Positions 1-56,703 of a stretch of DNA of 64,000 nucleotides are shown piece after piece; position 1 is the stretch's first letter, and each line of letters begins with the position of its first letter. A program made the position numbers and the translations under genes. A model generated the notes under the pieces. It was not told the origin of the DNA. It made no database searches and was given only the letters and a program-made list of their open reading frames with translations. The DNA lies in NCBI GenBank assembly GCA_037127795.1, contig JBAXXQ010000002.1, forward strand, positions 11 through 64,010. Direction: 5' to 3'. This DNA comes from a bacterium (GTDB lineage: Bacteria > Patescibacteriota > Minisyncoccia > Phycocordibacterales > UBA9973).

Positions 1-10
1 CAATAACGGT

Positions 11-3000
11 GTGATGGAATACAAAGATGTGGGAGGAAGTTGGACTGCTATTACTGGTGGGGGTGGTGCGACGAGTGGGTTGAGTTTGGATGGTGGAGGA
101 AATTTGATTGCGAATACTGTATCTTCAAATATAGCATCATCTAATAGCCCATATCAATCAATACTACTTGGACAAGGGGCTGGTGATGGTATCAATGCAT
201 CAAGTCCATATAACATTTTAATAGGTTCTCATGCAGGGTTTCATGCATATGCAATACAACAAGTTATATTTTTAGGTTCTGGGGCTGGAGATGGTGCGAC
301 GCATGCTGCCAATTCTATTTTTATCGGTACTAATGCTGGATATGGTGATACTGTTGATAATACTTCAAGCTCTGGTTTCTCAATCCTTCTTGGTCCTTCA
401 ACCTCAACAGGTGGTTATTCAAATAGTATTGCGATTGGTAAATCAGCAACAAACAGCGCCACTAATCAATTTATGGTGGGGTCAAATCAGTACCCAATAC
501 GTCAATTTGTTCTTGTTGAGACTGGTGGTCAGAATGCCTACATTAATTTTATAAATGGAAATTCTTCTTATGGAAGTAGTGGTTATGAAACCGGTGACTT
601 GGGTTATGGATTTAAAGATGACAATGGTACCATGAAATACAAAAATGAAGGTGGCTCTTGGACTGCGTTTGGGGGAGGGTCAACAACACCGACATTGGAT
701 GGAAATAATAGTTTTGTTGTAGGTGGAGGTAGTGATCCTTTATTTTCAAATTTTATAGGTATAGGTGCTGGGCAAGGAGCTACGGGGGCACAGGCATCGA
801 ATTTCTTTGGTACTAGTGCTGGAAATAATGCTTATGCCGCAAATAACTCAAATTTCTTTGGTGCAAATGCCGGTCGTGATGCAATTTTTGCATCTAGTTC
901 AAACTTTTTTGGATCTAGCGCTGGTAATAGTGCCACAAACGCTCATGATTCAAATTTCTTAGGAAATAGTGCTGGATATGGTGCAACTAGTGCACAAAAT
1001 TCAAACTTCTTTGGACAATATGCAGGGTACCAAGCAACTAATGCTGGCTTTTCAATTTTCTTAGGTCCTTGGGCTGGCTATAATGCGGTTAGTGCGTATA
1101 ACTCTATTTTTCTTGGTCAAAGTGCTGGTCAAAGTGATAACGTCAACAACACCTCAAACAATGGTTTCTCAATCCTCCTCGGTCCATCAACCTCAACTGG
1201 CGGTTATTCAAACAGTATCGCTATTGGTGGAACTGCAACAAACACAAAATCAAACCAACTTATGCTCGGTTCAAGTAGTTACCCAATCTCTGATCTTTCA
1301 ATCAATAACGTAAACTACACCTTCCCATCTTCACAAGGCTCATCTGGGCAGACATTAGTAAATGATGGAAGTGGGAATTTAACTTGGCAGACAGTAGGAG
1401 GTGTTTCGCTTGATACAGTAGATGCATTTATTGTTGGTGGTGGTGCTGATATGGTCGATTCTGTTTTTATTGGTAAAAATACTGGTGCTGGTGCAACTTC
1501 TGCGCACCATTCTAATTTCTTTGGGGCAGGTACTGGGTATGGTGCAACTAATGCTAGTGGTTCAAATTTCTTAGGAAACGGAGCAGGTTATAGTGCGATA
1601 AGTGCCAGTGGTTCAAATTTTATAGGACAAAATAGTGGATTTTATGCAAATAATGCTAATGATTCAATCTTTTTAGGAAATTACGCTGGTAGTAGCGCAA
1701 CCAACGCTGCTTTCTCAACCTTTATCGGAGGAAATGCTGGTCAAAATGCAACCAATGCCGCTGATGCAATTTTTATAGGAAATGCTGCGGGAGAAGGTGA
1801 TACTATTAATACTTCTTACTCTGGTTCTTATGGTCACTCTGCCATTCTTATTGGTAACGGTACTTCAACTGGTGGGTATATAGATAGTATAGCTATAGGT
1901 CAAGGTGCTACTAATACAAAAACAAACCAGCTTATGCTTGGTTCAAGTGGTTACCCAATTTCTGCTCTCTCAATCAATAATGTAAATTACACCTTCCCAG
2001 CTTCACAAGGTTTATTAGGGCAAACACTCGTAAATGATGGAAATGGAAACCTTAGTTGGAGTACAGTGGGAGGTGGTACAGGGATTACTTCAATTAATGG
2101 TAATACTGCTACCGCACAAACTATTGCAGCAGGGACAGGAATCAGTATATCTAATAATGGGAATGGTACGACAACTATTACTAATACGAGCTCTTCATTA
2201 TTACAGTTTGATGGTACTAATAATTCTTTTTATTCAGCAACAACCCCTGATACTCAAGGTGCTGTATTTTTGGGATATCGAGCTGGTTTTAGTCCTCAAT
2301 CAGAATATAATTCTGTTGCTATTGGAACACAGGCTGGGTATTATGCTTCGCTTAATTCTACAATTGTGGGGTATCAAGCTGGTATGAATGCAAGATATGC
2401 AGAACTCCTTAATGCTTTTGGTATGAATGCTGGATATAATGCAGCAAATGCTCGAAATTCAATTTTTATAGGTGCCAATGCTGGGTATAACGACTCTGTT
2501 GATAATACTTCAGGTGGATATTCAATTCTTATTGGTACAAGTACTAATACTGGCGGCTATTCAAATAGTATCGCCATCGGCTCTAATGCAATCAATACAG
2601 CAACCAACCAGTTCATGATTGGTTCAAGCTCATACCCAATCAATAGTACTGTCATCAAAGGCTCAGGTAGTACTCAATGTACTATCACTACCGGTACTGG
2701 TATTGCGTGTTCTTCAGATATCACTCTCAAGAAAAACATTACTGCAATCCCCGATGGTATGCTTGCAAAAGTATTATCACTCAACCCAGTAACCTACAAC
2801 TGGAAAACACAACTAGACACCGATCCTACCTATGCTGGATTCATCGCACAACAAGTAGAAGTTATATTCCCACAAGCAGTATCTACTGATCCATCTACTG
2901 GTACCAAACTGCTTTCTCCAACAGTACTCATTCCATTTACTATCAAAGCTATACAAGAGATGGATATACAAATGCAAGGTCTCGCAAGTCTCAAAGGGGA

Positions 3001-3169
3001 TAGTGGTAACACCTTCAAGGATGCATTGATTGCATGGTTCGCAGATGTACACAATGGTATCAACAAACTCTTTGTCCGAGAGATAGATACAACCAAGATT
3101 TGTGTTTCAGATACTACAGGCGCAACCTGTATCACCAAAGGACAACTCGACAAACTCCTCGCACGATAA
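11..3169 (+). CDS. Tail-fibre-like surface protein, 5'-partial: the frame is open to the window edge and the N-terminus lies inside a repeat. It has Gly/Asn-rich Hep_Hag/YadA-head-like repeats (SNFFG..AG..AT.A) and a C-terminal peptidase S74 intramolecular chaperone domain.
   Basis: Long ORF with no stop upstream of the GTG/ATG at 11-16. Internal repeats such as GYSNSIAIG..ATN..NQ(F/L)M(V/L)GS recur three times. The C-terminus DITLKKNI...NPVTYNWK...GFIAQQVEVIFPQAV matches the autoproteolytic chaperone domain of phage tail fibres and endosialidases. It is paralogous to the C-terminus of the giant ORF at 38656. Confidence 0.7.
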   Translation: MMEYKDVGGSWTAITGGGGATSGLSLDGGGNLIANTVSSNIASSNSPYQSILLGQGAGDGINASSPYNILIGSHAGFHAYAIQQVIFLGSGAGDGATHAANSIFIGTNAGYGDTVDNTSSSGFSILLGPSTSTGGYSNSIAIGKSATNSATNQFMVGSNQYPIRQFVLVETGGQNAYINFINGNSSYGSSGYETGDLGYGFKDDNGTMKYKNEGGSWTAFGGGSTTPTLDGNNSFVVGGGSDPLFSNFIGIGAGQGATGAQASNFFGTSAGNNAYAANNSNFFGANAGRDAIFASSSNFFGSSAGNSATNAHDSNFLGNSAGYGATSAQNSNFFGQYAGYQATNAGFSIFLGPWAGYNAVSAYNSIFLGQSAGQSDNVNNTSNNGFSILLGPSTSTGGYSNSIAIGGTATNTKSNQLMLGSSSYPISDLSINNVNYTFPSSQGSSGQTLVNDGSGNLTWQTVGGVSLDTVDAFIVGGGADMVDSVFIGKNTGAGATSAHHSNFFGAGTGYGATNASGSNFLGNGAGYSAISASGSNFIGQNSGFYANNANDSIFLGNYAGSSATNAAFSTFIGGNAGQNATNAADAIFIGNAAGEGDTINTSYSGSYGHSAILIGNGTSTGGYIDSIAIGQGATNTKTNQLMLGSSGYPISALSINNVNYTFPASQGLLGQTLVNDGNGNLSWSTVGGGTGITSINGNTATAQTIAAGTGISISNNGNGTTTITNTSSSLLQFDGTNNSFYSATTPDTQGAVFLGYRAGFSPQSEYNSVAIGTQAGYYASLNSTIVGYQAGMNARYAELLNAFGMNAGYNAANARNSIFIGANAGYNDSVDNTSGGYSILIGTSTNTGGYSNSIAIGSNAINTATNQFMIGSSSYPINSTVIKGSGSTQCTITTGTGIACSSDITLKKNITAIPDGMLAKVLSLNPVTYNWKTQLDTDPTYAGFIAQQVEVIFPQAVSTDPSTGTKLLSPTVLIPFTIKAIQEMDIQMQGLASLKGDSGNTFKDALIAWFADVHNGINKLFVREIDTTKICVSDTTGATCITKGQLDKLLAR

Positions 3170-38655: not shown

Positions 38656-41600
38656 ATGAGAGCAAATATTTTTAAAAAATTTGCGTCGTTCATTTTGTAC
38701 ATTTTTGTACTCTCTTTTGTCGTACCAAGTACAACTCTCGCTATCACAGGAGCCCCAAGTATTATCAGCTACCAAGGAAGACTTACAGATAGCTCTGGTA
38801 ACTTGCTCGGTGGCGCAGGCACACTCTATGCATTCAAGTTTTCTATCTGGGACAATTCAGTAGTGGGGGCTGGTACCAAGCTTTGGCCTGCAGCAAATCC
38901 TGGCGTAGATTCTGTGCAGGTCACTGATGGGGTGTTCAATGTCCGCATCGGTGATACTGCGAACGGCTACCCAGATACACTCAACTACAATTTCCAAGAT
39001 AATGCCAATGTCTATTTGCAAATAGAAGTTTCTTCTGATGGTACGACATTCGAGACGCTTGGTCCTCGTCAGCAAATCACTTCAGCAGGCTATGCGATAA
39101 ATGCACAGACACTGCAGGGCCTCACCCCTGGTACTGGCGCAAACAATCTTTTGCAATTGGGAAGTAATGGCGAGATCAATCTCTCAGGAAATGGTATTTC
39201 TACACTCGGCAATGTAGGTCTCGGTACTGTATCGAGCGGTGTATGGCATGGCGATCCTATTGCAGACGGCTATTTTGTAAAAACAGGGAACTGGGAAGGA
39301 AATTTTGGTGGGTACGATAGTAGTTACTATCTCAATGCGACTCATTTATCAAACTTCCAAATCCCATTTGATACTGCATTCGCGACAAAGACTACAGATA
39401 GTCTCGCAGAAGGAAGTTTGAATAAATATTTTACCGATACTCGTGCGCGCAATGCTATATCTGTAGCAGGTGCACCGTTGAGCTACGATACTAGTACTGG
39501 AGTAGTATCTATCGCACAAGCAGATAGTACACATGCAGGATTTGTATCAGCGGCAGATTACAACACCTTCAACAACAAACAAGATGTATTGATCTCTGGC
39601 ACTAATATAAAAACAATAAACTCAAATTCTCTCCTCGGTGCGGGAGATATTTCTGTTGCGACATTGCTTGGCTATACACCATACAACACAACAAACCCAA
39701 GTAATTTTATTTCAAATATTGGCGGCCTCGTAACTCCTGGTACCAATGTCTCAATCACCGGGAGTGGTACTGCGATAGATCCGTTTGTTATCACTAGTAC
39801 CAATCCAGGTGGGACAGTGACTTCTTTTGCTTTTACAAACAGTAACGGCTTCACAGGGAGTGTTTCAAATAGTGGGACTACGCCGACACTAACGCTTGCT
39901 TTGCAATATGCAAACAGTACACAAGACGGTCAGCTTTCTGCTACTGATTACAATACCTTTAATAATAAACAAGATACACTCGGCTACACACCATACAATG
40001 CGACCAACCCCGCAGGATATATCTCAAATCTTAACGCACTTACTACAACAAATTTGAATGAAGGAAGTAATTTGTATTTCACCAATGCCCGCGCAATAAG
40101 CGCACTCACCGGGCAAAATATTTCATTATTAAATAATAACGCTGGCTATATCACCGGTGTCTCATGGGGTGGTATTACAGGACTTCTTGCAAATCAAACA
40201 GACCTCCAAAATGCACTCAATGCAAAACAAAATGTCATCACACTCGGCACTACTGCACAATATCTCCGTGGAGACTTGTCTCTTGGGACATTTCCAACTG
40301 CAGTATCGAGTTTTACCAATGATGCAAACTATATCACCACCGCAGGTGCACGAAGTGCTATATCTGTAGCTAGTACACCACTCACATACAATAGTAGTAC
40401 GGGGGTAGTCGGTATCAATCAGGCAAATAGTACAACCGATGGTTTTGTATCAAGTACTGATTGGAATACATTCAATAATAAATTTAGTCTCCCAGCCCTT
40501 ACAAGTGGCTCTGTTGTTTTTGCAAATGGTTCAACACTTGCACAGGATAACAATAACTACTATTGGGACAGCACTAATGCGCGTTTGGCAATTGGTGGCT
40601 CTTCGTCAGGTGCAAGTTATCCAAGTGTTGCAATGACAGGTGCAAGTACTCCGAGTCCTTATGTGGCTAGTGCCTCAACTTTTAATACAGGGTTTGAAGC
40701 CTATAGAGCTTTTGATAATAATAGTGGTACAAACTGGAATAATACTGCAAGTACTGGTTGGCTTGCTATTGACCTAGGTAGTACGACAACAATAAATAAA
40801 TACCAAATTCAAGCATTAAATAGTGCTGGTACTGTTTCTGCGACCCCAAAAACATGGACTCTCGAAGGTTCTACTACAGGTGCATGGGCTGGGGAACAAG
40901 TGATTATTGATACTCAGGCAAGCCAAACAGGTTGGACTGTAAGCGAAATACGAACTTTCACTCTTTCATCAGCACAATCATATAGATACTATCGTATAAA
41001 TATATCTGCAACTAATGGGTACCCTACAATAGGTATAACCTCATTTGTTTTACAAAATACTTCACCTATTCACGTTTCTCCGCTTGCAAAACTCCATATC
41101 ACCGCTGGATCAAATACGGAAAAAGGTCTCATTGTACAAGGTGCTGCAAGTCAAACTGCAAACCTTCAAGAATGGCAGGATAGTGCAGGGGGTATATTGT
41201 CATATATGACCCCCGCGGGAAATATAGGGTTTGGATATGGTAGTCATACTATATCTATAGATGCTCCATCATCAAACAGTAATGGAAGTAATTTGACGAT
41301 TATTGCGGGGGCTACTACTGGGACTGGATACACAGGAGGAAATTTGTACTTACTTCCTGGGGCAACTGCGGGAGGAGGTTCTGCAGGTAGTGTTTGGATT
41401 GGGGGAAACTCTTCAGGTAATTACCAATCATATAGTAATAATATTCAAGGTTTTACAAGAGTTAGGAATGGGGGGCCTAATACAAATAATTTACTTGCTC
41501 TTGCTGGTGGATCCGGTTTGGATAACTGGGTATTCTCATACGATCAAACAAATAAATATGCAATTACGACATATGCGAGTACGTATCAAGCGCAATTTAA

Positions 41601-44600
41601 AACTGCTACAGCGTATACATTTGATAATAATGTAGGTGTTGGTACTATTTCTCCCTCAGCACGATTGCACTCTCTTGCTACTACCGAGCAGCTTCGCCTT
41701 GGATATGACACAGCAAATTACATGTCTACTACTATTGGTAGCACTGGCAATGCAACTCTCGCACTCACTGGCACCGGCACTCCAGCATTTACATTCTCAA
41801 ACCCTATAAATATCTCTGGTGCACTCACTGCGACAAGTATTACAAACTCATCACTCACTCAAGGCTCAGTACTCTTTGCAGGTGTGGGTGGGTTAGAGTC
41901 ACAAGACAATAACAACTACTATTGGGATAGTACCAATGCACGGTTGGCAATTGGAGGGTATTTAGGCGGGACTGTATATCCGACAACTGCAATGACTGCA
42001 AATAATCTACCATCTCCTTATGTAGCAAGTGCCTCATCTGTATCGGGAGGTTACCCAGAATATCAGGCTTTTGATAAAAACGCTTCAACATTTTGGGCAT
42101 CTCTTGTTAATAATCCAACCGGTTGGATTGCGATTGATTTGGGTAGTACTACAACAATAAATAGATATCAGGTACAAGCTACTTCTGGTGGAGGAAATGT
42201 AAACCCTAAAAACTGGACTCTCGAAGGTTCTACAACTGGCGCATGGGCAGGTGAGCAAGTAGTACTTGATACTCAAACAAACCAAACCGGCTTAATGACA
42301 GGGGGTGCGATTCTCACATACACTCTTTCGTCAAATCAATCATACAGATATTACAGATTAAACGTGAGTGCAAACAATGGCGCTACTAACTACCTTGAGG
42401 TTGCTAGTTTCAATGTACAAAATACAAATACAACTCATGTAGCACCACTTGCAAAACTCCATATCACCTCAGGTTCACAGACTGAAAAAGGTTTGATTGT
42501 TCAAGGATACGCAAGTCAAACTGCAAACCTTCAAGAATGGCAGGATAGTACTGGTGCAGTGAAGGCATATATTGATCCGTTCGGTCAGATTACTTCATCA
42601 AGTAATATTTATGCAACAGGTACTGTTACTGGTGGTAATGGAAGAATTATAATGTCTGGTGGTTTAACTAATGGAGCAAACGGTTCTATCTACACACAAT
42701 CAGGACAATCAAGAAGTTTGGAATTGGTAGTCGATCAAACTGCTGGTCGCGGAATGCTTATTCAGACAGGGACAGGGTATGTAGGAGTAGGTACTACATC
42801 TCCTACGTCTATGCTCGATGTAGCAACAAATGCGCTCGGTACAACACAGACAACAACAAGTGGTCTTGCGCTAGAAAACAACACTGCAGGTGCGCTCAAC
42901 GCAATGCAAATATCTCCAGCTGTACGTATGAGCGGGCAGGGATGGTATGTAAACGGAAGTGTATCACAACAAGTTGATGCTCGTATGTATGTGTTGCCAG
43001 TTCAAGGAACATCAGCAAATGCAACAACGTCAATAGTATTTGATGCACAAGATGGAAGTCGTGGAGGATTTAATAAAATTGCTGATTTTTCTAATCAATA
43101 CGGAGGTACCAGTGGAAATTTAAATTTATATGATAGCGGTGTTATTAAGGCTTCTTTGTTTGCTGGAGGTAATGCAAGATTAAATTTAAATGGAGGTATA
43201 GTAACTAGTCGAGGTAGTAATATTATAATGAGTACATCAGTTCTTAACGATCCTAATACTTATAATATGGGGATGGTGACATCTATATCTAACACTCTTC
43301 CACAATTTTCTGCAAACTATAATGCGACAAACTATTTTACAACAACGGTAGGTAGTACAGGCAACGCAACACTCGCACTTACAGGTACTGGTACACCATC
43401 ATTTACATTTTCAAACCCCGTAAATATTTCTGGTGCACTCACTGCGACAAATATTACCAACTCATCCCTCACCCAAGGCTCAGTAATCTTTGCTGGTGCG
43501 GGTGGAGTAGAGAGTCAGGATAACAATAACTACTATTGGGATAGTGTAAACAATCGTCTTTCTATTGGAGGGTATTTAGGTGGGACTGTATATCCAACTT
43601 CTTCAATGACTACAAACAGCTTGCCATCTCCTTATGTGGCTACGTCTAGCGGCTCTCAAATTGGTGGGTATGAATCATTTAGAGCTTTTGATGGAGTCCT
43701 TTCATCTGCGTGGGCTGTTGGGACTACTTCTGGTTGGCTTGCTCTAGATACAGGTAATGCTCTTGGGACAACAATAAATAAATATCAAGTACAAGCATCA
43801 AATCCGATGGGCATAGGTATTGGTTCTATGCCAAAAAACTGGACTATTGAAGGTTCTACAACTGGTGCATGGGCTGGTGAGCAAGTAACCATTGATACAC
43901 AAACAAATCAAACTGCTTGGTCTTTAGGAGAAATTAGAACATATCCCCTTTCAACACCTCAAACATATAGATATTATCGTATAAACATTAGTGCAAACAA
44001 TGGTAGTAGTTCATATACTGGTATTGGTGCATTTAATCTTCAGAATACTGCAACAACACACGTAGCACCTCTTGCAAAACTTCATATCACTTCAGGTTCA
44101 CAGACAGAAAAAGGATTGATCGTACAAGGATATAATTCTCAAACTGCAAACCTCCAGGAGTGGCAGGATAGTAGTGGAAGTATAAAAGCATATGTTGATA
44201 GTGGTGGTACTTTTAATACCGGTGCTACTATTGTTGCGACAGGTTCTATTACTGGGGGAAATGGAAGAGTTGGTATAGGTGCGGGTCTTACAAGTAGTAC
44301 GAACGGCGCGATATATTCTACTTCTGGAAAAAGTTTGGAATTGGTTACAGATTCAACAGCTGGTCGTGGAATGCTTATTCAAACAGGAACAGGTAATGTC
44401 GGTATTGGCACAACATCACCTTCAGCAAAAACACACATTCTCGGTACTACTGAACAACTCCGCCTCGGATACGATGCTTCAAACTACATGTCTACTACTA
44501 TTGGTAGCACTGGCAATGCAACTCTCGCACTCACTGGCACCGGCACTCCAGCATTTACATTCTCAAACCCTATAAATATCTCTGGTGCACTCACTGCGAC

Positions 44601-47600
44601 AAGTATTACAAACTCATCACTCACTCAAGGCTCAGTACTCTTTGCAGGTGTGGGTGGGTTAGAGTCACAAGACAATAACAACTACTATTGGGATAGTTCA
44701 ACACAACGTCTTGCAATTGGAGGTTCTTCATCGGGGTCAAGTTATCCAAGCGTTGTTATGACCGGGAATAGTAGTCCGTCTCCGTATGTAGCTAGTGCAT
44801 CAGGTACTAATTATGGTGCACCGTGGAACGCTTTTGATAATAATTCTTCAACAACATGGAAATCTAATGTACTTGGATCAGGTTGGCTTGCTATTGATTT
44901 AGGAAGTGTTACAACTATAAATAAATATCAAATTCAGGTAGATCCTGTCTACACTAGTAATCAACCAAAAACATGGACTCTCGAAGGTTCTACTACGGGT
45001 GCATGGGGAGGTGAGCAAGTAACTCTCGACACACAGGCGAGTCAAACAGGGTGGGCTGTGGGTGAAATACGTACATTTACTCTTTCGTCATCTCAATCAT
45101 ATAGATATTTTAGAATAAATGTCACAGCAGTTTCTGGTGTTGATAATGTGGTTATTGCTTCATTTGTTTTACAAAATACTTCTCCGACCCACGTTTCTCC
45201 TCTTGCAAAACTCCATATCACTGCTGGATCAAATATTGAAAAAGGTCTCATCGTACAGGGTGTAGCAAGTCAAACCGCAAACCTCCAAGAGTGGCAAAGT
45301 AGTACCGGAAGTATTTTGTCTACTATAAATAGCAGTGGATATTTGGGTATTGGAACAAGTACTCCTCGATATCAAATTGAATTAAATAGCGGAACTGCTA
45401 ATTCAAGTCTTGTATTGTCGGATTCCGCAGCTTCGTCTACAAGTCGTGGACTTTCTTGGACACGATCAAGTGATGGAACAGTATTTCAATATATTTCTGC
45501 AACAACTGATAGTGGAAATATGCTTTTAGCAGCATATCACAATGTATTGTTTGTCTCAGGATCTGGTAGTGGTGTTGGTATGGGACTTCCGACAACAAAC
45601 AATTTCCTTTCAGGTAAATTGCATATTCGTGGAGAAAGCTCTGATACATCTTCAAACACTTATACAGGTACCAATGCATTGTATGTAGAAAACTCGCTTG
45701 CGCAACAGCTCTTCTCTGTGGCAAACACAGGAAGCGTCGGTATTGGTACAAACACTCCTACATCATTACTCCAAGTAACTCAACGTACAACAGGTGCGGG
45801 TACTGTTACCAACACTGCGGGCGGTACAACTGTTACTGGTACTGGTACACAATTTACAAACACCTTTAAAGTCGGAGACACAATCACTATCGGTGGGCAG
45901 ACTGTTGCTATTTCTGCTATTGCATCAGATACAGGTATGACAACAGCTGCGATCACAAATGCAAATACCAATGCGGCATATACACTCGTCGGTGGAAATA
46001 GATTTGCGGTGAGTGGTAATGGAAATACTATCGTTGGTCCTGCAACATATAGTCCGTCTAATGCACAATTCTTTGTTTCAAACTCAACATATAATAATGG
46101 ATCAGGGGTTATTATTGATACGAGTGGGACATACCCAAATGCAAGTACAAACCCTCTTATTGGATTTGTGGGTGCTGGATTAACACTACCTTCATCGTGG
46201 ATTCAGGCTGTATTGCCGTATGGTGCAATGCAGATGAGAGCGTATAGTGACTTGCAAATTACAACTACAAATGCAACAGGGGGAGGTTTGAGTGTCAACA
46301 GTGGGGCTACATTTAGTGCTTCGTTGGGTAGAATAAATGCAGCGGGTACGCGTACCTCAGTTTCTGGGCAAGCATCTAGTTTCTATAGTAATGTTGCACT
46401 TACCGCAGCAGCAACAAATGATATTTTGGCAAGTTATTATATAAATGATACTTATGTTCCTGGTGCATTTACTGGTGTTACTCAATACGGTATTTATCAA
46501 AACAATACTGCGCAAAACTATTTCCAAGGGAATGTGGGAGTAGGTACTGCGACACCTTCTGCAAAACTACATTCTCTTTCTACTGGTGAACAGCTTCGTC
46601 TTGGATATGACGCGTCAAACTATACCGCATTTACAACATCTTCAACTGGAAACTTAACTATTAATCCAAGTGGTGCTGCGGTCCAAATTGCTGGTAATTC
46701 TGCCCTTATTATAAATCCTGGAAATGGAACACTGGGTGTCGGTGTAAGTGCTCCAACAGCAAAAGTTGATATTGCAGATATTGCACTTGCCGGTAGTGGA
46801 TCACTTGCTGGATCGGTGTTAAATATCGCACAAACTTGGAATACGTCAGGTTCACCTACTGCTATAAAATTGGCGGTTACAAATACTGCAAGTAACGCTA
46901 CCTCAAGTTATCTCCTTGATTTGCAGGCAAACAATAGCGGAGGAGGAATGTATTCTAAGTTTAGTGTGAGATATGATGGGTATGTCGTTGCGGGTTCTTC
47001 AATATCAGCAGGTGGTGCTTTTGTAGGGTTAACAAACGGACAAGATAATCAGCCTATTATTAAAAATAATAATACAGCGTTTGGTTTATGGACAACAAAT
47101 TCACTATCATCAAGTTATGTAGGCTATGGTACTAATATCACACTAGGTATGAATATGAATAGTACTGGAAACTTTGGATTCAGTACTACGGCAACAGCAA
47201 CAGAGAAAGTGACAATTGCAGATACAACTCTTGCTGGTAGTGGGTCACTTACTGGCTCAGTACTTAATCTTACACAAACATGGAATACAACAGGAGCACC
47301 AACTGCTATTAAATTGAATGTGACAAACACTGCAAGTACAGGGACGCCAAAACTTCTTGATTTGCAAGTGGGAGGAGTGTCGAAGTTCTATGTGCCAGCG
47401 AGTGGTAGTGTTCAGGCACCAAACGGCATTGTTGCAAGTAGTGGATTCACTATGAATGGTGGCTTAGGAATTGGTTCTGCATTTGCTGGTAATGGATCAT
47501 GGGGTAATTCTTCTGGCTCAAATGTGATTAATGGTGTTGCAATTTATCCTACAATAAACCTTACTGGTACATATTCAGGAAGTGCATTTGGATTTTCTTT

Positions 47601-48783
47601 TACGCCTACTATTACATCATCAACAGGAAGCTTGTATGCGTTTTATTCTTCAAATGGTATGAACTCGTTTACCGATACTATTTCTGCTAGTTCAGGTTCT
47701 CGTGCTGGTTCACTCCTTTCTCTTAATCAAAAATGGAATACAACAGGAAGTCCGACAGCTATACTCCTTAATGTGACAAATGGGTCTGGTGGTGCTGGAG
47801 TAGCTGGAACTAATGCTAATTTAATGGATTTGCAAATGGGAGGAACGAGCATGTTTGCTGTAGGGGCAAATGGAAATGTGGGTATCAATGGTATTCCGAC
47901 AAATCGTCTCTCTGTTATGGGTGCAAGTGGTGATACTACTGTAGTTAATATCGGTACGACCAGTGGAAACAACTGTAGCTTCTCGACAACGACTGGCTCA
48001 TGGAGTTGTGCGTCTGATATTCGTTTGAAGCATGATATCTCAGATATTTCTGCAGCAGATGCGCTTGCAAAGCTTGGTATGCTCAATCCAGTATTCTTCC
48101 GATATAATTGGCAAGCAGATAGTGAGTCTGCTATTGCTGGATTCATCGCGCAAGATTTTGAAAAAGTATTTCCAGAGCTCGTAAATACAGATCCAAATAC
48201 AGGATACAAGTCGCTCTCATATGCACCACTTATGCCGTACGTAGTAAAAGGACTCAATGATCAAGAAAAGAAAATTTCTGATATGGATATTCGTGTTTCA
48301 AAATTGGAAACAATACTCGCACTCGCAACACCTAGTACAAATTCTTTTGATGGAGTACTTGCAAGTATGAATGCAAATGTGATCGACGGGGTGGCGCATT
48401 TCAAGAGTTTGTTTGTCGATACTATACATGTAGACAAGGGTATCGAAATGAAAGATCAAACAACTGGCGCATTGTACTGTGTAGTAATCAATAATGGTGA
48501 TTGGGTAAAAAATCCTGGTCCTTGTGATACACCAGTAGTGGTGCCGCTTGCGCCAACACCTGCAGTATCTGTACCGACTACTACGACAACCCCAAATACA
48601 ATTCCGGATACACCCGTAGTAAGTCCTACTCCAAGCACAACAGATACTAGTACTCCATCAGTAACAACTACAGTTACGCCAGATCCAGCACCTAGTTCTG
48701 CTCCAGTAGTAGCCCCAACCAATACAACTGATTCTGCTCCAGCACCTACAGTAGCAGCACCTGTAACAACAACCACCCCATAA
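38656..48783 (+). CDS. Giant secreted surface and tail-fibre-like protein (3375 aa) with a signal peptide and LGYTPYN(T/A)TNP modules. It has four ~130-aa discoidin (F5/8 type C)-like modules, each followed by a conserved PLAKLHITSGS.TEKGLIVQG.ASQTANLQEWQDS block, and (V/I)G(V/I)GT.(S/T)P. fibre repeats. The C-terminus carries a peptidase S74 intramolecular chaperone domain and a Thr/Pro-rich tail.
   Basis: Signal MRANIFKKFASFILYIFVLSFVVPSTTLA. Discoidin-like blocks lie near 40680-41070, 42040-42430, 43660-44060 and 44810-45190 (AFD.N.ST.W...GWLAIDLGS.TTINKYQIQ...PK.WTLEGSTTGAWAGEQV). The chaperone domain sits at about 48000-48330 (SDIRLKHDISDI...NPVFFRYNW...GFIAQDFEKVFPELV). The PT-rich tail is at 48520-48780. 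Confidence 0.85.
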   Translation: MRANIFKKFASFILYIFVLSFVVPSTTLAITGAPSIISYQGRLTDSSGNLLGGAGTLYAFKFSIWDNSVVGAGTKLWPAANPGVDSVQVTDGVFNVRIGDTANGYPDTLNYNFQDNANVYLQIEVSSDGTTFETLGPRQQITSAGYAINAQTLQGLTPGTGANNLLQLGSNGEINLSGNGISTLGNVGLGTVSSGVWHGDPIADGYFVKTGNWEGNFGGYDSSYYLNATHLSNFQIPFDTAFATKTTDSLAEGSLNKYFTDTRARNAISVAGAPLSYDTSTGVVSIAQADSTHAGFVSAADYNTFNNKQDVLISGTNIKTINSNSLLGAGDISVATLLGYTPYNTTNPSNFISNIGGLVTPGTNVSITGSGTAIDPFVITSTNPGGTVTSFAFTNSNGFTGSVSNSGTTPTLTLALQYANSTQDGQLSATDYNTFNNKQDTLGYTPYNATNPAGYISNLNALTTTNLNEGSNLYFTNARAISALTGQNISLLNNNAGYITGVSWGGITGLLANQTDLQNALNAKQNVITLGTTAQYLRGDLSLGTFPTAVSSFTNDANYITTAGARSAISVASTPLTYNSSTGVVGINQANSTTDGFVSSTDWNTFNNKFSLPALTSGSVVFANGSTLAQDNNNYYWDSTNARLAIGGSSSGASYPSVAMTGASTPSPYVASASTFNTGFEAYRAFDNNSGTNWNNTASTGWLAIDLGSTTTINKYQIQALNSAGTVSATPKTWTLEGSTTGAWAGEQVIIDTQASQTGWTVSEIRTFTLSSAQSYRYYRINISATNGYPTIGITSFVLQNTSPIHVSPLAKLHITAGSNTEKGLIVQGAASQTANLQEWQDSAGGILSYMTPAGNIGFGYGSHTISIDAPSSNSNGSNLTIIAGATTGTGYTGGNLYLLPGATAGGGSAGSVWIGGNSSGNYQSYSNNIQGFTRVRNGGPNTNNLLALAGGSGLDNWVFSYDQTNKYAITTYASTYQAQFKTATAYTFDNNVGVGTISPSARLHSLATTEQLRLGYDTANYMSTTIGSTGNATLALTGTGTPAFTFSNPINISGALTATSITNSSLTQGSVLFAGVGGLESQDNNNYYWDSTNARLAIGGYLGGTVYPTTAMTANNLPSPYVASASSVSGGYPEYQAFDKNASTFWASLVNNPTGWIAIDLGSTTTINRYQVQATSGGGNVNPKNWTLEGSTTGAWAGEQVVLDTQTNQTGLMTGGAILTYTLSSNQSYRYYRLNVSANNGATNYLEVASFNVQNTNTTHVAPLAKLHITSGSQTEKGLIVQGYASQTANLQEWQDSTGAVKAYIDPFGQITSSSNIYATGTVTGGNGRIIMSGGLTNGANGSIYTQSGQSRSLELVVDQTAGRGMLIQTGTGYVGVGTTSPTSMLDVATNALGTTQTTTSGLALENNTAGALNAMQISPAVRMSGQGWYVNGSVSQQVDARMYVLPVQGTSANATTSIVFDAQDGSRGGFNKIADFSNQYGGTSGNLNLYDSGVIKASLFAGGNARLNLNGGIVTSRGSNIIMSTSVLNDPNTYNMGMVTSISNTLPQFSANYNATNYFTTTVGSTGNATLALTGTGTPSFTFSNPVNISGALTATNITNSSLTQGSVIFAGAGGVESQDNNNYYWDSVNNRLSIGGYLGGTVYPTSSMTTNSLPSPYVATSSGSQIGGYESFRAFDGVLSSAWAVGTTSGWLALDTGNALGTTINKYQVQASNPMGIGIGSMPKNWTIEGSTTGAWAGEQVTIDTQTNQTAWSLGEIRTYPLSTPQTYRYYRINISANNGSSSYTGIGAFNLQNTATTHVAPLAKLHITSGSQTEKGLIVQGYNSQTANLQEWQDSSGSIKAYVDSGGTFNTGATIVATGSITGGNGRVGIGAGLTSSTNGAIYSTSGKSLELVTDSTAGRGMLIQTGTGNVGIGTTSPSAKTHILGTTEQLRLGYDASNYMSTTIGSTGNATLALTGTGTPAFTFSNPINISGALTATSITNSSLTQGSVLFAGVGGLESQDNNNYYWDSSTQRLAIGGSSSGSSYPSVVMTGNSSPSPYVASASGTNYGAPWNAFDNNSSTTWKSNVLGSGWLAIDLGSVTTINKYQIQVDPVYTSNQPKTWTLEGSTTGAWGGEQVTLDTQASQTGWAVGEIRTFTLSSSQSYRYFRINVTAVSGVDNVVIASFVLQNTSPTHVSPLAKLHITAGSNIEKGLIVQGVASQTANLQEWQSSTGSILSTINSSGYLGIGTSTPRYQIELNSGTANSSLVLSDSAASSTSRGLSWTRSSDGTVFQYISATTDSGNMLLAAYHNVLFVSGSGSGVGMGLPTTNNFLSGKLHIRGESSDTSSNTYTGTNALYVENSLAQQLFSVANTGSVGIGTNTPTSLLQVTQRTTGAGTVTNTAGGTTVTGTGTQFTNTFKVGDTITIGGQTVAISAIASDTGMTTAAITNANTNAAYTLVGGNRFAVSGNGNTIVGPATYSPSNAQFFVSNSTYNNGSGVIIDTSGTYPNASTNPLIGFVGAGLTLPSSWIQAVLPYGAMQMRAYSDLQITTTNATGGGLSVNSGATFSASLGRINAAGTRTSVSGQASSFYSNVALTAAATNDILASYYINDTYVPGAFTGVTQYGIYQNNTAQNYFQGNVGVGTATPSAKLHSLSTGEQLRLGYDASNYTAFTTSSTGNLTINPSGAAVQIAGNSALIINPGNGTLGVGVSAPTAKVDIADIALAGSGSLAGSVLNIAQTWNTSGSPTAIKLAVTNTASNATSSYLLDLQANNSGGGMYSKFSVRYDGYVVAGSSISAGGAFVGLTNGQDNQPIIKNNNTAFGLWTTNSLSSSYVGYGTNITLGMNMNSTGNFGFSTTATATEKVTIADTTLAGSGSLTGSVLNLTQTWNTTGAPTAIKLNVTNTASTGTPKLLDLQVGGVSKFYVPASGSVQAPNGIVASSGFTMNGGLGIGSAFAGNGSWGNSSGSNVINGVAIYPTINLTGTYSGSAFGFSFTPTITSSTGSLYAFYSSNGMNSFTDTISASSGSRAGSLLSLNQKWNTTGSPTAILLNVTNGSGGAGVAGTNANLMDLQMGGTSMFAVGANGNVGINGIPTNRLSVMGASGDTTVVNIGTTSGNNCSFSTTTGSWSCASDIRLKHDISDISAADALAKLGMLNPVFFRYNWQADSESAIAGFIAQDFEKVFPELVNTDPNTGYKSLSYAPLMPYVVKGLNDQEKKISDMDIRVSKLETILALATPSTNSFDGVLASMNANVIDGVAHFKSLFVDTIHVDKGIEMKDQTTGALYCVVINNGDWVKNPGPCDTPVVVPLAPTPAVSVPTTTTTPNTIPDTPVVSPTPSTTDTSTPSVTTTVTPDPAPSSAPVVAPTNTTDSAPAPTVAAPVTTTTP
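41720..41931 (+). repeat. Copy 1 of a perfect 212-bp intragenic direct repeat (identical to 44486-44697)
   Basis: acatgtctactactattggtagcactggc...caataacaactactattgggatagt is identical at both positions by direct reading. A diverged third copy lies at about 43330-43545. Confidence 0.85.
44486..44697 (+). repeat. Copy 2 of the perfect 212-bp intragenic direct repeat
   Basis: See copy 1. The two copies are 2766 bp apart within the same ORF and in the same frame. Confidence 0.85.
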
Positions 48784-48784: not shown

Positions 48785-50104
48785 ATGAAAAACGTATATA
48801 AAAAAATTCTATATATAGTAGTCTTGGGAATAGGAATTTTTTCTTATTCGCAAGTGTCTGCAACAAGTATCGTGGGATTAGATTTTTCTATTGTGAATCC
48901 GATTCTTTCTAGTGGTTTTGCGCAAATAAAATCTACCAATTTTGGGCTTGGGCAATCGTTTGGGCAAAGTGTAATAGGGAAGTCTATCTCTGCTCGATTC
49001 CAGGTGTGGAGTGGGTTCCAATACTATGCGACAGCAAAATCGTTTGTTGCGACAGCACAACCAGGAGATAGTAAAATAACGTATTCATGGACTGCGCCGC
49101 AGACATATCTGGGTGCGACTGTTGGTTCATATGAACTCGGTATAGGTACTACGCCAGGGACATATGTATTTCAAAATGTAGAAAGTGTTACTACGTTTGT
49201 AAAACCAGGACTTACCAATGGTGTGCAGTATTATGCAATCATAAAAGCAGTTTCTCCTGGTGGGGCTGTACTTTCTTTTTCTAATGTACTAATTACAAAA
49301 CCAGTAGCGGCTACTATAAATCCTGGTACTGGCGGCGGCGGTGGAGGCGGTGGAGGAGGTGGTCCTTCGAATACTGGCTCTGTTGGTAATGCAGCTATTA
49401 TTATAAAAGGTATTGCATACCCTGGTGCGCAAGTGACTATTCTCAAAGATGGTGCAGTACAAGCGGTGACTACTGCAGATATGGGGGCTTTGTTTTCTAT
49501 TACTATAAATAATCTCGTCGCAGCGCAGTATACATTTGGCGTATATGCGACAGATTCAAATGGAAAAAAATCTAGTGCGTATAGCTTCCCGATGACACTT
49601 ACTGACTCAGTGACTGCCGAGATCGACAATGTATTCCTCGCGCCAACTATTGGGGTAGATAGTAGTACGGTGAAAAAGGGTGATCCGATTGGGATTTTTG
49701 GTACTGCTGCGCCGAATGCACAGGTCAATATTTATGTGCACTCGGCGCAGCAATTCACTGAGCAGGTGAGTGCGTCAAAAGTCGGTGCATGGTTCAAGCA
49801 ATTTGATACATCATTCCTCGAGCTTGGAGATCACGTGACATTTTCTCGACAAATAAAAGGCACGCAAGTGACTGATGTCAGTCAGAGTGTCGGCTTCACG
49901 GTGGGTGATAAAACTATAAAAGAAAATACTACGTGTGGGCGCAGTGATATGAACTGCGACAAGAAGGTGAATATTACAGACTTGAGTATGCTCTTGTATT
50001 ACTGGCACAAAACACCTCCTGCAAATTCAAAAGCAGATATAAATAAAGATAAGATTGTTGACTCAAAAGATTTTTCAATATTACTATATGACTGGACAGG
50101 ATAA
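48785..50104 (+). CDS. Secreted protein with FN3/Ig-like beta domains, a poly-Gly linker and a C-terminal dockerin-like domain
   Basis: Signal anchor MKNVYKKILYIVVLGIGIFSYSQVSA. The linker is GTGGGGGGGGGGGPS. The C-terminus carries two Ca-loop/helix repeats, DMNCDKKVNITDLSMLLYYW and DINKDKIVDSKDFSILLYDW. Confidence 0.6.
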   Translation: MKNVYKKILYIVVLGIGIFSYSQVSATSIVGLDFSIVNPILSSGFAQIKSTNFGLGQSFGQSVIGKSISARFQVWSGFQYYATAKSFVATAQPGDSKITYSWTAPQTYLGATVGSYELGIGTTPGTYVFQNVESVTTFVKPGLTNGVQYYAIIKAVSPGGAVLSFSNVLITKPVAATINPGTGGGGGGGGGGGPSNTGSVGNAAIIIKGIAYPGAQVTILKDGAVQAVTTADMGALFSITINNLVAAQYTFGVYATDSNGKKSSAYSFPMTLTDSVTAEIDNVFLAPTIGVDSSTVKKGDPIGIFGTAAPNAQVNIYVHSAQQFTEQVSASKVGAWFKQFDTSFLELGDHVTFSRQIKGTQVTDVSQSVGFTVGDKTIKENTTCGRSDMNCDKKVNITDLSMLLYYWHKTPPANSKADINKDKIVDSKDFSILLYDWTG

Positions 50105-51227
50105 AAAACAAAAATTATATACCATATTTTTTTATACACTTATAGTATTTTTGTGTAGTGTATTTCGTGTACATGCTGCTGTGCTTTCTGTCGGATCAGC
50201 GCAGCAAAATATATATGTTGGCGATAGTGTCTCTATTGATTACTATATAGATACCCAAGACGCGCCAATAAATGTCGTCGATGCGACATTGCACTATGAT
50301 GCAAAAACATTACGCGTAGACAATATCTCTACTGGAAATTCTGCGGCAAGTATCTGGGCAGAAAGTCCTAGTGTGGTACGTGATGGCTTTATACATTTTG
50401 TTGCAGGGTTCCCTGATGGTATAACAGGCAACCATATATCACTCCTTCGTGTTACCTATGTAGCGCAAAGTGCTGGAAGTTCATTTCTTTCAAATACTAT
50501 ACAAAATTCGCACGTATATATAAATAATGGCGCAGGGACAGAGCAAGAGCTCTCTATGCAGCCTGTGAGTTTTATGATTCTCCCAGAAGGCGGCAAGGTC
50601 GCCACTATATCTTCTAATACAAATCCTATGCAGACTAATTGGTACAAAGATCACGATGTCAAAATTCATTTCACTATGCAAAAAGATAGTGTGTATAGTT
50701 ATAGTTTCAGTACCAATCAAGAGCTTATCCCAAGCGATACCCCAATGCAGACAAATGGTGATGTACTGTATGAGCATATTCCTGATGGAGTGTACTATTT
50801 CAAGCTTGCTATGAAGAGTGGCTCAGGATGGAGCGAAGCGGGGGTATATAGAGTACAAATAGATAGTACTAGTCCCACTATTTTGTCTGCATATATAAGT
50901 AGTGACATGTCTATATATAGTGGTAATGCATTCGTATCTTTTTCTGGGGTAGATAAAACAAGTGGTATCGCGCAATATGCAGTACGCAGTGGGTACTTTG
51001 GGTTCTATCATACAGCGACAAGTCCATACAAAATAAATCGTCCATTGTTTGGTAATTTTATTACTGTGCGTGCGCGTGATGTTGCAGGTAATACTAGTAC
51101 AGAGACAGTGTACTATCCTGCATACATTCCAAATTGGCTTGCAATAATACTGTTGTGTATACTTGTGTGTGGTTTGTTGTTGCGATACACCACACTCCGT
51201 CGTATACTTACTAAGATACAAAAATAA
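50088..51227 (+). CDS. Membrane-anchored surface protein with an N-terminal cohesin-like beta-sandwich domain and a C-terminal TM anchor
   Basis: Signal ...FLCSVFRVHA. The domain begins AVLSVGSAQQNIYVGDSVSIDYYIDTQ..INVVDATLHYDAKTLRV..ISTG, matching the cohesin start pattern. The C-terminal TM is NWLAIILLCILVCGLLL followed by RR. The start was chosen at the ATG at 50088. Confidence 0.45.
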   Translation: MTGQDKKQKLYTIFFYTLIVFLCSVFRVHAAVLSVGSAQQNIYVGDSVSIDYYIDTQDAPINVVDATLHYDAKTLRVDNISTGNSAASIWAESPSVVRDGFIHFVAGFPDGITGNHISLLRVTYVAQSAGSSFLSNTIQNSHVYINNGAGTEQELSMQPVSFMILPEGGKVATISSNTNPMQTNWYKDHDVKIHFTMQKDSVYSYSFSTNQELIPSDTPMQTNGDVLYEHIPDGVYYFKLAMKSGSGWSEAGVYRVQIDSTSPTILSAYISSDMSIYSGNAFVSFSGVDKTSGIAQYAVRSGYFGFYHTATSPYKINRPLFGNFITVRARDVAGNTSTETVYYPAYIPNWLAIILLCILVCGLLLRYTTLRRILTKIQK

Positions 51228-51230: not shown

Positions 51231-51953
51231 ATGAAAAAATTTTTTACACTCATATCAATTTTCTTTTTTACTTCAGTACTTGTAGTACATGCTGCTGTTA
51301 TATCTATCGCGCCAAGTAGTAAGTCTGTTGTTGAGGGAACAACCTTTAGTGTATCTGTAGAAGTAAATACAAAAGGCCAAGCGGTAAATGCTGCAGAGAC
51401 CACGGTAAGCTTCCCATCTGATTTACTCGAAGTAGTATCTGTTGCTGGTGCAAAAACTTTTTCATTACAAACACCAGGGTCTCCTTCTCGTACAGAAAAC
51501 TCAGTTTCATTTTCTGCAGGGATACCATCTCCAGGATACAATGGTCCTCGTGGTGGAGTAGGGCGTATTACCTTTAAAGCAAAAACACCAGGTAGTGCTC
51601 GTATAACAGTTACTTCTGGAAAAGTATTGCTCAACGACGGCAATGCGACAGATGTATTTGATGGTACAACAAATGCACTTATTACTATCACTGCTGCACC
51701 AAAGAAAGAAGTACCTGTTGAGGTAGTACCAGCTCCAGAGACTCCAGCTACAGTAACACCAACAGAAACACTTCCTCCAATCACTCCAACTGTTGCGCCT
51801 GTAGTACAGACTGCACCAACTCAGACCATATCGATCAAAGTATCTGATCTCTTCACCCTTATATACGTACTTATCGGAATAATCGTTCTTCTTGCAATAT
51901 CAGTACTTATTCTTGTACTCTTGTTACTCAAAAAGAATAAGAAGATTAAATAA
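51231..51953 (+). CDS. Membrane-anchored cohesin-like domain protein with a Pro/Thr linker and a C-terminal TM anchor
   Basis: Signal ...FTSVLVVHA. The domain begins AVISIAPSSKSVVEGTTFSVSVEVNTKGQAVNAAETTVSFPSDLLEVVSVAG, paralogous to the N-domain of the preceding gene. A PT-rich linker is followed by the TM LIGIIVLLAISVLILVLLLL and KKNKK. Confidence 0.45.
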   Translation: MKKFFTLISIFFFTSVLVVHAAVISIAPSSKSVVEGTTFSVSVEVNTKGQAVNAAETTVSFPSDLLEVVSVAGAKTFSLQTPGSPSRTENSVSFSAGIPSPGYNGPRGGVGRITFKAKTPGSARITVTSGKVLLNDGNATDVFDGTTNALITITAAPKKEVPVEVVPAPETPATVTPTETLPPITPTVAPVVQTAPTQTISIKVSDLFTLIYVLIGIIVLLAISVLILVLLLLKKNKKIK

Positions 51954-51959
51954 TTAAAA

Positions 51960-51998
51960 ACCGCCCCCGTCAGCTGACGGGGGCGGTTTTTTTATAAG
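51960..51998. terminator. Bidirectional Rho-independent terminator
   Basis: Reads aaaaccgcccccgtcagctgacgggggcggttttttt. Confidence 0.65.
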
Positions 51999-56540: not shown

Positions 56541-56616
56541 GAATAATATAGTGTGAGATTTCGTCACCCAGTAGGCGATTCTGCTGAATCGCGAATTACT
56601 AAGTTTTTTAGTATTG

Positions 56617-56703
56617 CGGAGGATGTGAGATTCGAACTCACGGGGCCGATTAAAGCCCGACGGTTTAGTAAACCGTTGATTTAAACCACTCATCCAATCC
56701 TCC
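56617..56703 (-). tRNA. Type-II (long variable arm) tRNA with discriminator G73, most consistent with tRNA-Ser. The anticodon loop reads UUACUAA, giving an apparent ACU anticodon (unusual).
   Basis: The - strand reads ggaggat-tg-gat-gagtggtttaa-atc-a-acggt-ttactaa-accgt-cgggctttaatcggcccc-gtgag-ttcgaat-ctcac-atcctcc-g. This gives a 7-bp acceptor, a 3-bp D stem, an 18-nt variable arm and a canonical TTCGAAT T-loop. The T-loop is canonical only on the - strand. Confidence 0.65.

Follow-up and report, generated by a model that had tools for sequence, protein, structure and literature searches.

How the ultrasmall bacteria in the candidate phyla radiation (CPR; Patescibacteria) locate their hosts and stay attached to them is for the most part not known, and type IV pili are the only well-studied element (PMC12206443). 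A gene in a 64,000-nucleotide (nt) stretch of a Paceibacterota genome, here called the window, puts this question in concrete form: what would a cellular bacterium of this kind do with a protein of 3,375 amino acids (aa) that shares several of its parts with phage tail fibers? The gene occupies window positions 38656..48783 on the + strand, and searches against Pfam, NCBIfam, and PHROGs, taken together with its single open reading frame (ORF), indicate a secreted chimeric fiber. On balance, we favor the reading, which we hold to be reasonably probable, that it is a Sec-exported, phage-tail-fiber-like surface fiber of Paceibacterota, a very long member of a CPR-wide family patterned on the mosaic adhesive trimer (MAT) fibers of Bdellovibrio, and that it serves as a multivalent adhesin for host glycans. 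A first-pass annotation made from the letters of the DNA had already described a phage-fiber-like adhesin residing in a cellular CPR gene, a description now supported by profile matches, a signal peptide, housekeeping neighbors, and CPR homologs. The signal peptide, the MAT-like N-terminal domain with its family, and an operon shared with dockerin- and cohesin-like genes go beyond what had been seen at that stage.

Domain architecture of the giant fiber protein

The frame opens with ATG and contains zero internal stops; since it is unbroken in DNA of ~40% G+C, an ORF of 3,375 codons is not attributable to chance, and its coordinates are exactly those reported in the first-pass annotation. No other product in the region is as rich in G/T/S/N as this one, with 13.4% T, 11.9% S, 11.9% G, and 8.9% N. 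Its sole hydrophobic segment is a putative Sec-type signal peptide at aa 1 to 29 (MRANIFKK, a hydrophobic core, and TLA; nt 38656..38742, +, directly preceding position 38743), for which the cleavage site was placed by eye; at the matching position, the CPR homologs have AxA|AG(V/T)P.

The segment that follows (aa 30 to 163; nt 38743..39144, +) is predicted to be a MAT-like β-sandwich domain and is the presumed surface anchor. As an isolated domain, it matches the NCBIfam model Bdello_MAT_N (NF053851) with 43.3 bits and an E value of 3.3e-11, and within the whole protein it does so with 32.8 bits; 53 of the 78 CPR homologs match the same model. This score, which is below the curated cutoff, places the fiber outside the Bdellovibrio MAT subfamily as modeled by NF053851. 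Nevertheless, in statistical terms the domain appears clear as a remote homolog of the MAT N-domain. An AlphaFold2 (AF2) model of it is an all-β sandwich with a predicted local distance difference test score (pLDDT) of >90 over aa ~34 to 140 (~105 residues) and finds no fold match in the PDB (best E value, 0.065). This agrees with the statement in the MAT study that the MAT N-domain, which presumably binds the predator's own surface, has no PDB homolog (PMC10769870).

At the opposite end, PF13884 (Peptidase_S74) is matched at aa 3120 to 3176 with E values of 7.7e-13 for the whole protein and 5e-14 in a piecewise scan (49 to 52.8 bits versus a cutoff of 22), and the domain as delimited here covers aa 3120 to 3256 (nt 48013..48423, +). 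The SDxxxK motif occurs a single time in the fiber, as S3120-DIRL-K3125, and aligns with the solved S74 fibers 8jov (ASDERLK) and 6f45 (SSDRRIK) and with MyRF (7dc3); S3120 (nt 48013-48015) is the predicted nucleophile, accompanied by K3125 (nt 48028-48030), and self-cleavage of the domain is predicted from this motif. The S74 chaperone had been proposed before any search was run, with the Pfam profile named as its check, and it is borne out by a match above the cutoff as well as by the Ser-Lys pair. The domain is followed by a 46-aa extension with a Cys pair, C3275/C3290 (aa 3257 to 3302; nt 48424..48561, +), and then by a low-complexity PT-rich tail (aa 3303 to 3375 and the stop; nt 48562..48783, +), 90% of whose 73 residues are P, T, S, A, or V. 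Thus, of the earlier suggestion that such a tail directly follows the S74 domain, the tail stands and the adjacency does not. The C...C(I/V)..xQL motif of the extension is also found in S74-type CPR homologs and in a paralog within the window, and the extension has no match in viral contigs, where the matches end at or before query residue 120. Inspection of the C-terminal tail revealed neither an LPXTG motif nor a transmembrane (TM) segment.

The central part of the chain (aa 614 to 2251) is dominated by four copies of a ~250-aa module, which are spaced by VG(I/V)GT...LRLGYD units. All are on the + strand: module 1 at aa 614 to 860 (nt 40495..41235), with a discoidin core at aa 672 to 791 (nt 40669-41028; 40.7 bits); module 2 at aa 1066 to 1312 (nt 41851..42591), with its core at aa 1124 to 1247 (nt 42025-42396; 52.8 bits); module 3 at aa 1604 to 1856 (nt 43465..44223), with its core at aa 1662 to 1787 (nt 43639-44016; 22.0 bits); and module 4 at aa 1988 to 2251 (nt 44617..45408), with its core at aa 2046 to 2160 (nt 44791-45135; 35.4 bits). 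Windowed self-BLAST finds the copies 55 to 78% identical (E values of 1e-43 to 1e-73), and in a four-copy alignment, they share 60 to 72% identity with copy 1 and reproduce almost letter for letter the repeat consensus drawn in the first-pass annotation. The Pfam search that it had proposed as a check supports its four F5/8 type C modules, PF00754 (F5_F8_type_C) being matched by the whole protein over four stretches (6.4e-34; 117 bits; cutoff, 28.2) and the related NedA-like model PF22633 with an E value of 1.4e-27. Copy 3 alone stays below the 28.2-bit cutoff and is counted via its ~60% identity to the other copies. The repeating unit, which had been equated with the discoidin domain, does contain a discoidin core and extends well past it, comprising a shaft lead-in, the core, and, once per module, a ~50-aa shaft unit (PLAKLHIT...NLQEWQ).

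The affinities of the core point to carbohydrate-binding module family 32 (CBM32). In Pfam, PDB sequence, and fold comparisons, it resembles the chitosan-binding discoidin modules DD1/DD2 of a Paenibacillus chitosanase (4zy9 and 2rv9) and the CBM32s of Clostridium perfringens. Unlike these, the fiber modules are not attached to an enzyme and are embedded in a fiber repeat; the identity is only ~20%. The closest relatives of the core are small proteins with ~35 to 45% identity, and others are phage tail or carbohydrate-binding proteins (29 to 37%). A low-confidence AF2 model of one module, for which the alignment consisted of its four internal copies only, served as weak corroboration: the top Foldseek matches are all CBM32/discoidin structures (E values of 2e-5 to 1e-3), and beyond the discoidin core, the modeled monomer shows disorder. 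CBM32 as a family does not conserve its binding residues, and the lectin role of the modules is a prediction from motifs.

The remainder of the chain is shaft and tip. The proximal shaft (aa 164 to 613; nt 39145..40494, +) has internal ~70-aa repeats detected by self-BLAST (aa 238 to 308 with 546 to 609 and aa 279 to 349 with 409 to 453), and the first ~290 aa are 56 to 60% identical to the CPR proteins P0001 to P0003. Neither it nor the middle shaft (aa 2252 to 2690; nt 45409..46725, +) has a Pfam match in the piecewise scan. Within the middle shaft, metagenome relatives delimit a mini-domain of ~110 aa (...TGAGTVTNTAGGTTVTGTGTQFTNTFKVGDTITIGG...; aa ~2359 to 2468; nt ~45730-46059), which is 45 to 78% identical to sequences in 40-odd metagenome contigs (loci L196 to L244). 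These relatives align only to query residues ~100 to 220, and at least 20 of the 49 metagenome loci with the mini-domain encode S74-terminated ORFs; it looks like a mobile shaft cassette. The distal tip (aa 2691 to 3119; nt 46726..48012, +), delimited by self-BLAST, motifs, and PHROG matches, consists of three ~150-aa repeats (LAGSGSL...WNT.G.PTA...) that end in a C3107...C3118 loop immediately before the predicted cleavage site; the same repeat unit is present in the CPR protein P0069. Phage-type character is evident from phrog_1980 ("tail fiber protein"), which spans the distal 385 aa (aa 2836 to 3220; E value, 9e-16), and from phrog_17517 ("tail protein"; E value, 1.5e-94). The fiber repeats of the NVGIGT type that had been reported from the letters were recovered as five occurrences of [NYS]VG[IV]GT (aa 992, 1375, 1914, 2360, and 2626), three of which are followed by A[KR][LT]H.

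A CPR family with a cell-specific base and phage-shared parts

The first 600 aa of the fiber retrieve 272 proteins, the named ones nearly all from Patescibacteria and many labeled "partial." When the first 240 aa served as the query of a pattern search that took a single genome for each species, 83 relatives turned up at 79 loci, with a best identity of 66%; the locus titles are nearly all those of Patescibacteria lineages, a few reading only "bacterium" and one Candidatus Binatia. Applied to 2.9 million viral contigs, the same scan found no relative of the N-domain, as against 111 relatives of the ~50-aa shaft unit and 35 of the S74 core. As the base is nonviral and the shaft unit and S74 domain occur in viral contigs, we regard the fiber as a chimera of a cell-specific base with a phage-shared shaft and chaperone.

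The family itself is mosaic. Complete members range from 296 to 3449 aa and end in S74, Kelch, Ig-like, or small conserved non-S74 domains, a swapping of ends that follows the same mosaic logic as that in MATs; low-complexity tails close most of the complete members inspected. Giant size recurs with different inserted domains, as seen in a 3,449-aa protein with Kelch repeats (L011, 8754-19100), a 3,054-aa protein with a Bact_surface_Ig-like end (L021, 9950-19111), and one of >3,455 aa with S74 at 3173 to 3265 plus further sequence (L079, 3695-14059). At the other extreme, P0019, P0020, P0023, P0029, P0034, and others are complete at ~330 to 360 aa and have a distinct small C-terminal domain in place of S74 (...ENLWVC.GG.CG...GN.IVE...ILEFDEGQ; alignment A1); they are probably the counterparts of the non-S74 MATs. 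As many as 57 of the 80 ORFs led by the N-domain (loci L001 to L079) reach a contig end, and many database entries are marked partial, which indicates that genes of this family routinely break assemblies and are truncated in public CPR metagenome-assembled genomes (MAGs). A second S74-ended fiber paralog lies in the window itself (positions 2..3169, +). Its reading frame is open up to the window's left edge, which cuts it at a length of at least 1055 aa; its S74 domain scores 55.2 bits in Pfam at aa ~902 to 957 of the listed ORF and is 39% identical to that of the giant by tblastn. It has a G/N/S/A-rich shaft and ends in the post-S74 motif ...ICVSDTTGATCITKGQLDKLLAR, without a PT tail, so that at least two fiber paralogs are present within 64 kb.

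The discoidin modules are not part of this common stock: with 0 matches in the 79 CPR genome loci and the 49 metagenome loci, a module of this kind is ruled out as a common trait of the CPR family. Homolog searches with segment queries were confined to targets below ~1.75 times the length of the query, and giants were therefore sought by an exhaustive search of representatives. A profile of the module run against 1.84 billion representatives gave 11,882 matches, overwhelmingly through the ~50-aa shaft unit, which occurs in up to 26 repeats per protein; among the 150 matches listed, just three proteins have a best stretch that spans the full module. P0313 (2,481 aa), which is among these three, is the one other protein found with the same composite, namely, an N-domain of MAT-like type (NCBIfam E value, 1.4e-4) that is 36% identical to the giant fiber, one discoidin module, S74, and a PT-rich tail. 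The composite is thus rare and not unique among the matches listed, and four discoidin modules per chain are the extreme among the proteins found.

The closest precedent for this organization is provided by the 21 MAT fibers of Bdellovibrio bacteriovorus, all of which have a ~130-aa β-rich domain right after the signal peptide and 13 of which end in S74 with SDxxxK (Caulton et al. 2024; PMC10769870). They are located at the surface, and their lectin-type tips are interchangeable, one such tip binding O-antigen glycans of the prey; for Bd3182, S74 autocleavage has been demonstrated and a length of ~550 Å reported (PMC10769870). MATs outside Bdellovibrio have been listed from Oligoflexia, PVC, Proteobacteria, the FCB group, and Omnitrophica, and that list includes no CPR, no discoidin tip, and no protein longer than 1,915 aa (PMC10769870). 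The fiber appears to have the N-terminal organization of the MAT superfamily at the level of remote homology, and it and its CPR relatives also appear to have the C-terminal one, S74 with SDxxxK or swapped adhesive tips. Its likeness to the S74 subgroup, e.g., Bd3182, extends to a long shaft with VG.G..P...L-type loop motifs, tip swapping at the level of the family, lectin-type domains, and its place in the cellular genome of a bacterium living on other cells; in a comparison limited to sequence, its VG(I/V)GT..P...L motif exceeds the published MAT capping-loop consensus by one residue. It differs in coming from a CPR taxon, with an N-domain under the model cutoff; in length, at 3,375 aa versus ~1,000 aa typically and 1,915 aa for the longest listed; in having discoidin/CBM32-type domains inserted four times along the shaft and not at the tip; in its extra Cys-loop and PT-rich tail after S74; and in sharing an operon with dockerin- and cohesin-like genes. 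The CPR taxon, the four in-shaft discoidin modules, the extended C terminus, and the operon are what is new relative to known MATs, and our literature search found no paper linking CPR to tail fibers, S74, MATs, or cohesin-dockerin systems.

S74 fibers and tailspikes of phages include the endosialidase of K1F and the L-shaped fiber pb1 of T5. The giant resembles them in its S74 chaperone with a Ser-Lys dyad and in its distal region, and the shaft unit PLAKLHI...NLQEWQ is shared with thousands of fiber-like proteins besides the viral contigs. It departs from them in its Sec signal peptide, in a cell-specific N-domain that stands in place of a virion attachment domain, in the lack of surrounding phage genes, and in a post-S74 extension not found in viral contigs. 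A phage virion tail fiber belongs to a structural module and has no secretion signal; neither holds for this protein.

The fiber operon and its genomic setting

The fiber gene heads an operon of four tightly packed genes, with intergenic gaps of 1, -17, and 3 nt. The second gene (48785..50104, +), whose ATG lies 1 nt past the fiber stop, encodes a secreted protein of 439 aa with fn3, Big_6, and Dockerin_1 domains, the last scoring 30.2 bits in Pfam versus a cutoff of 22.9; its PDB dockerin matches are weak. The third (50088..51227, +) encodes a signal peptide, a cohesin-like domain that is borderline in Pfam, and a C-terminal TM helix; the listed ORF starts from a TTG at 50055, and the ATG at 50088 is the likely start. 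The fourth (51231..51953, +) encodes 240 aa in which a signal peptide and a cohesin-like domain precede a PT linker and a C-terminal TM helix. It has no Pfam match, and its assignment draws on the third gene: tblastn matches of the fourth in related loci coincide with those of the N-terminal part of the third, and a jackhmmer search started from the domain of the fourth also retrieves the third. The block is closed by a bidirectional terminator hairpin (51956..51991), a perfect palindrome with a 16-bp stem and A5/T5 flanks. No comparably strong hairpin was found between or within the four genes, where the other terminator-like calls have stems of at most 8 bp.

This neighborhood recurs in the family. 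At no fewer than 14 of the 79 genome loci, relatives of the dockerin gene, the cohesin-like genes, or both occur no more than 10 kb from the fiber gene, always on its strand, and the P0003 locus has the order of fiber, dockerin, and cohesin-like gene seen in the window, its ortholog being marked "Cohesin (weak)." Dockerin- or cohesin-like genes are also downstream of S74 fibers in 4 of the 49 independently chosen metagenome loci. A same-strand dockerin gene with one or two TM-anchored cohesin-like genes stands beside fibers in L010, L023, L029, L047, L053, L062, and L066 and likewise in L071, L073, L078, L193, L208, L228, and L235; in several loci, a conserved protein of ~146 to 151 aa (...LQVTQPLQP...INRDQI...) is encoded immediately before the dockerin gene. 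At the locus of P0003, the nearest relative that is complete (L193; GCA_036405895.1, DASWWS010000001.1), the block is flanked by four near-identical type IV pilin-like genes (MKNRGFTLIELLVV...; 6624-7922 and 14121-15840). A link to type IV pili as a general rule is ruled out, as the window lacks the prepilin motif and no more than 2 of the 79 loci have it.

Giant proteins of a partly similar kind have been described in Omnitrophota, where assemblies of dockerin-type giant proteins break at repeats, in a preprint whose text contains neither "S74" nor "tail fib" (West-Roberts et al., 10.1101/2023.11.21.568195). In both cases, ultrasmall bacteria with a predatory or symbiotic life secrete giant proteins, and discoidin repeats go together with cohesin/dockerin-type elements. 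The Omnitrophota proteins combine dockerin and discoidin in one much larger protein with a C-terminal TM region, whereas the dockerin- and cohesin-like domains of the fiber system sit on separate operon partners.

The wider setting is that of a cellular chromosome. The window encodes a transfer-messenger RNA (tmRNA), two tRNAs, SecY, FtsH, RecG, a P-type ATPase, and ABC transporters, with a malic enzyme directly upstream of the fiber gene. The closest named relatives of SecY are from Candidatus Paceibacterota (69 to 73% identity), and other relatives reach 89 to 92%. A PHROG scan of ten neighboring ORFs, nine of them without a Pfam match, gave one match, to phrog_806 of unknown function (E value, 1.3e-4), and no structural family; with housekeeping neighbors and none of this structural class, the locus is not a prophage. 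Three further features of the window were recorded. The first is a 675-aa protein (11698-13725, +) in which a Schlafen-group-3-like DNA/RNA helicase (PF09848; 3e-69) is fused to a C-terminal Peptidase_S24 (LexA-like) domain and which looks defense related. The second is a 585-aa protein (20233-21990, -) with a C-terminal Por_Secre_tail domain (type IX secretion sorting; 7e-10), unexpected in Patescibacteria. The third is a pair of tRNAs called by ARAGORN, tRNA-Ile with anticodon TAT (28844-28918, +) and tRNA-Ser with anticodon ACT, with A at the wobble position (56616-56703, -); both anticodons are uncommon in bacteria.

Proposed mode of action and alternative explanations

We envisage that the fiber is exported by Sec and its signal peptide removed and that the N-terminal β-sandwich, in keeping with its homology to MAT N-domains, would then hold it at the surface of the symbiont cell. 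Possible partners in this step, suggested by the conserved synteny, are the operon's dockerin protein and its membrane-anchored cohesin-like proteins. By analogy with known S74 proteins, the S74 domain may nucleate trimer folding from the C terminus and then cut itself off at S3120, which would free a 256-aa fragment (chaperone, Cys-loop, and PT tail) and expose the distal tip of three ~150-aa repeats. The four discoidin/CBM32-like domains would loop out of each chain, giving a trimer with twelve of them at four levels that might bind glycans. Rough scaling from the ~550 Å of Bd3182 (PMC10769870) would make the fiber 150 to 200 nm long, a length comparable to that of the cell. The role in host attachment is one that we infer, with backing from the homology of the N-domain to the prey recognition fibers of Bdellovibrio.

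Several findings weigh against this reading. The N-domain scores 43.3 bits under a curated cutoff of 60 bits, with a best stretch limited to positions 7 to 89 of the 162 in the profile. The proposed mechanism assigns no role to the post-S74 extension and the PT tail, which would leave with the chaperone if the cut is made. The AF2 model of the module has a pLDDT of 49 overall and 54 to 79 in the core. As for the mounting of the fiber, the third operon gene scores 23.1 bits for Cohesin versus a cutoff of 24.1 and has no PDB cohesin match, and the synteny count of 14 in 79 stands without a genome-wide background frequency. The fiber sequence has no dockerin or cohesin signature, for which reason a physical link between fiber and scaffold is offered as a hypothesis. 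Finally, no second assembly of the fiber gene came out of an exact look-up and a metagenome scan.

The best-surviving alternative, which we nonetheless consider unlikely, is a structural or environmental adhesin that serves apart from host recognition in attachment to particles, chitin or chitosan, biofilm matrix, or sister cells. The nearest solved relatives of the discoidin core do bind chitosan, cohesin/dockerin systems classically organize substrate-bound complexes, and no host is known for this organism. Against this stand the homology of the N-domain family to prey recognition fibers and the extreme mosaicism of the tips, which suits partner-specific recognition better than a generic glue; furthermore, all cultivated Patescibacteria are obligate episymbionts (PMC12206443).

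Slightly less likely again is a surface-displayed, tailspike-like polysaccharide depolymerase. Its unannotated stretches would conceal a catalytic region, directed by the CBM32 modules, and the protein would degrade capsule or wall polymers of the host instead of only adhering. In line with such a reading, it was on endosialidase tailspikes that S74 domains first came to notice, CBM32 modules are usual companions of glycoside hydrolases, and the PDB and fold matches of the modules are to enzyme-borne ones. There is also room for an enzyme, ~1,000 aa being without a family assignment (aa 861 to 980, 1313 to 1546, and 2252 to 2690). However, Pfam, NCBIfam, and PHROGs give no catalytic domain, β-helix, or lyase family in the fiber at an E value of ≤1, and the unannotated stretches are G/S/T/N-rich and made of the same fiber motifs as elsewhere, with metagenome relatives that are other S74 fibers.

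That the 3,375-aa ORF is in part an assembly artifact, with the number or order of its modules wrong, is very improbable. The risk is best located at an exact 213-nt repeat (41719-41931 = 44485-44697, +), whose copies are 2766 nt, or 922 codons, apart and bracket a unit that holds modules 2 and 3; this repeat is either a recent gene conversion tract or an assembly risk point. The frequency with which family ORFs in public MAGs run off contig ends and the want of a copy elsewhere add to the concern: an exact protein look-up returned no record of an identical fiber, and a metagenome scan with the nonrepeated aa 2252 to 2700 returned no ortholog, the best match being 78% over the ~110-aa mini-domain. 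Conversely, all of the other repeats are only 67 to 84% identical at the DNA level and too diverged to collapse, and none of the four modules, given their 60 to 72% identity, is a duplicated read-through. Since the bracketed unit is exactly 922 codons long, a miscount would stay in frame, and relatives of 3,054 to 3,455+ aa exist. The ORF is credible, with a provisional module number. Weakest of all is the idea of a phage, prophage, or tailocin tail fiber gene lying in the chromosome, which the strong matches to phrog_17517 and phrog_1980 and the sharing of shaft units and S74 with viral contigs recommend and which we reject as scarcely credible on account of the housekeeping neighbors, the PHROG scans, the Sec signal peptide, the operon shared with membrane-anchored cohesin-like proteins, and an N-domain that is absent from the viral contigs and present in 79 genome loci.

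With a host-glycan adhesin as the preferred reading, the gene and its family offer a second concrete and testable candidate, beside type IV pili, for the means by which CPR bacteria grip their hosts. The base of these fibers is homologous to that of Bdellovibrio prey recognition fibers, shaft and tip are exchangeable parts held in common with phages, and the lectin modules can be expressed. The truncation of 57 of the 80 members at contig ends shows why such genes go underreported. The recurrent operon with dockerin- and cohesin-like genes suggests a mode of mounting that, if true, would be an unusual use of the cohesin-dockerin pair, as a socket for an adhesin and not for the assembly of enzymes. 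More broadly, and only as a tentative possibility, a phylum-wide repertoire of MAT-like, phage-derived fibers might decide the host of each of the Patescibacteria, with the fibers mounted via a dedicated scaffold of cohesin-like membrane proteins and a dockerin adaptor from the same operon and, in the case at hand, twelve lectin domains (four in each of three chains) reading host glycans multivalently. Fiber and tip repertoires could serve as genomic predictors of host range in uncultivated CPR.

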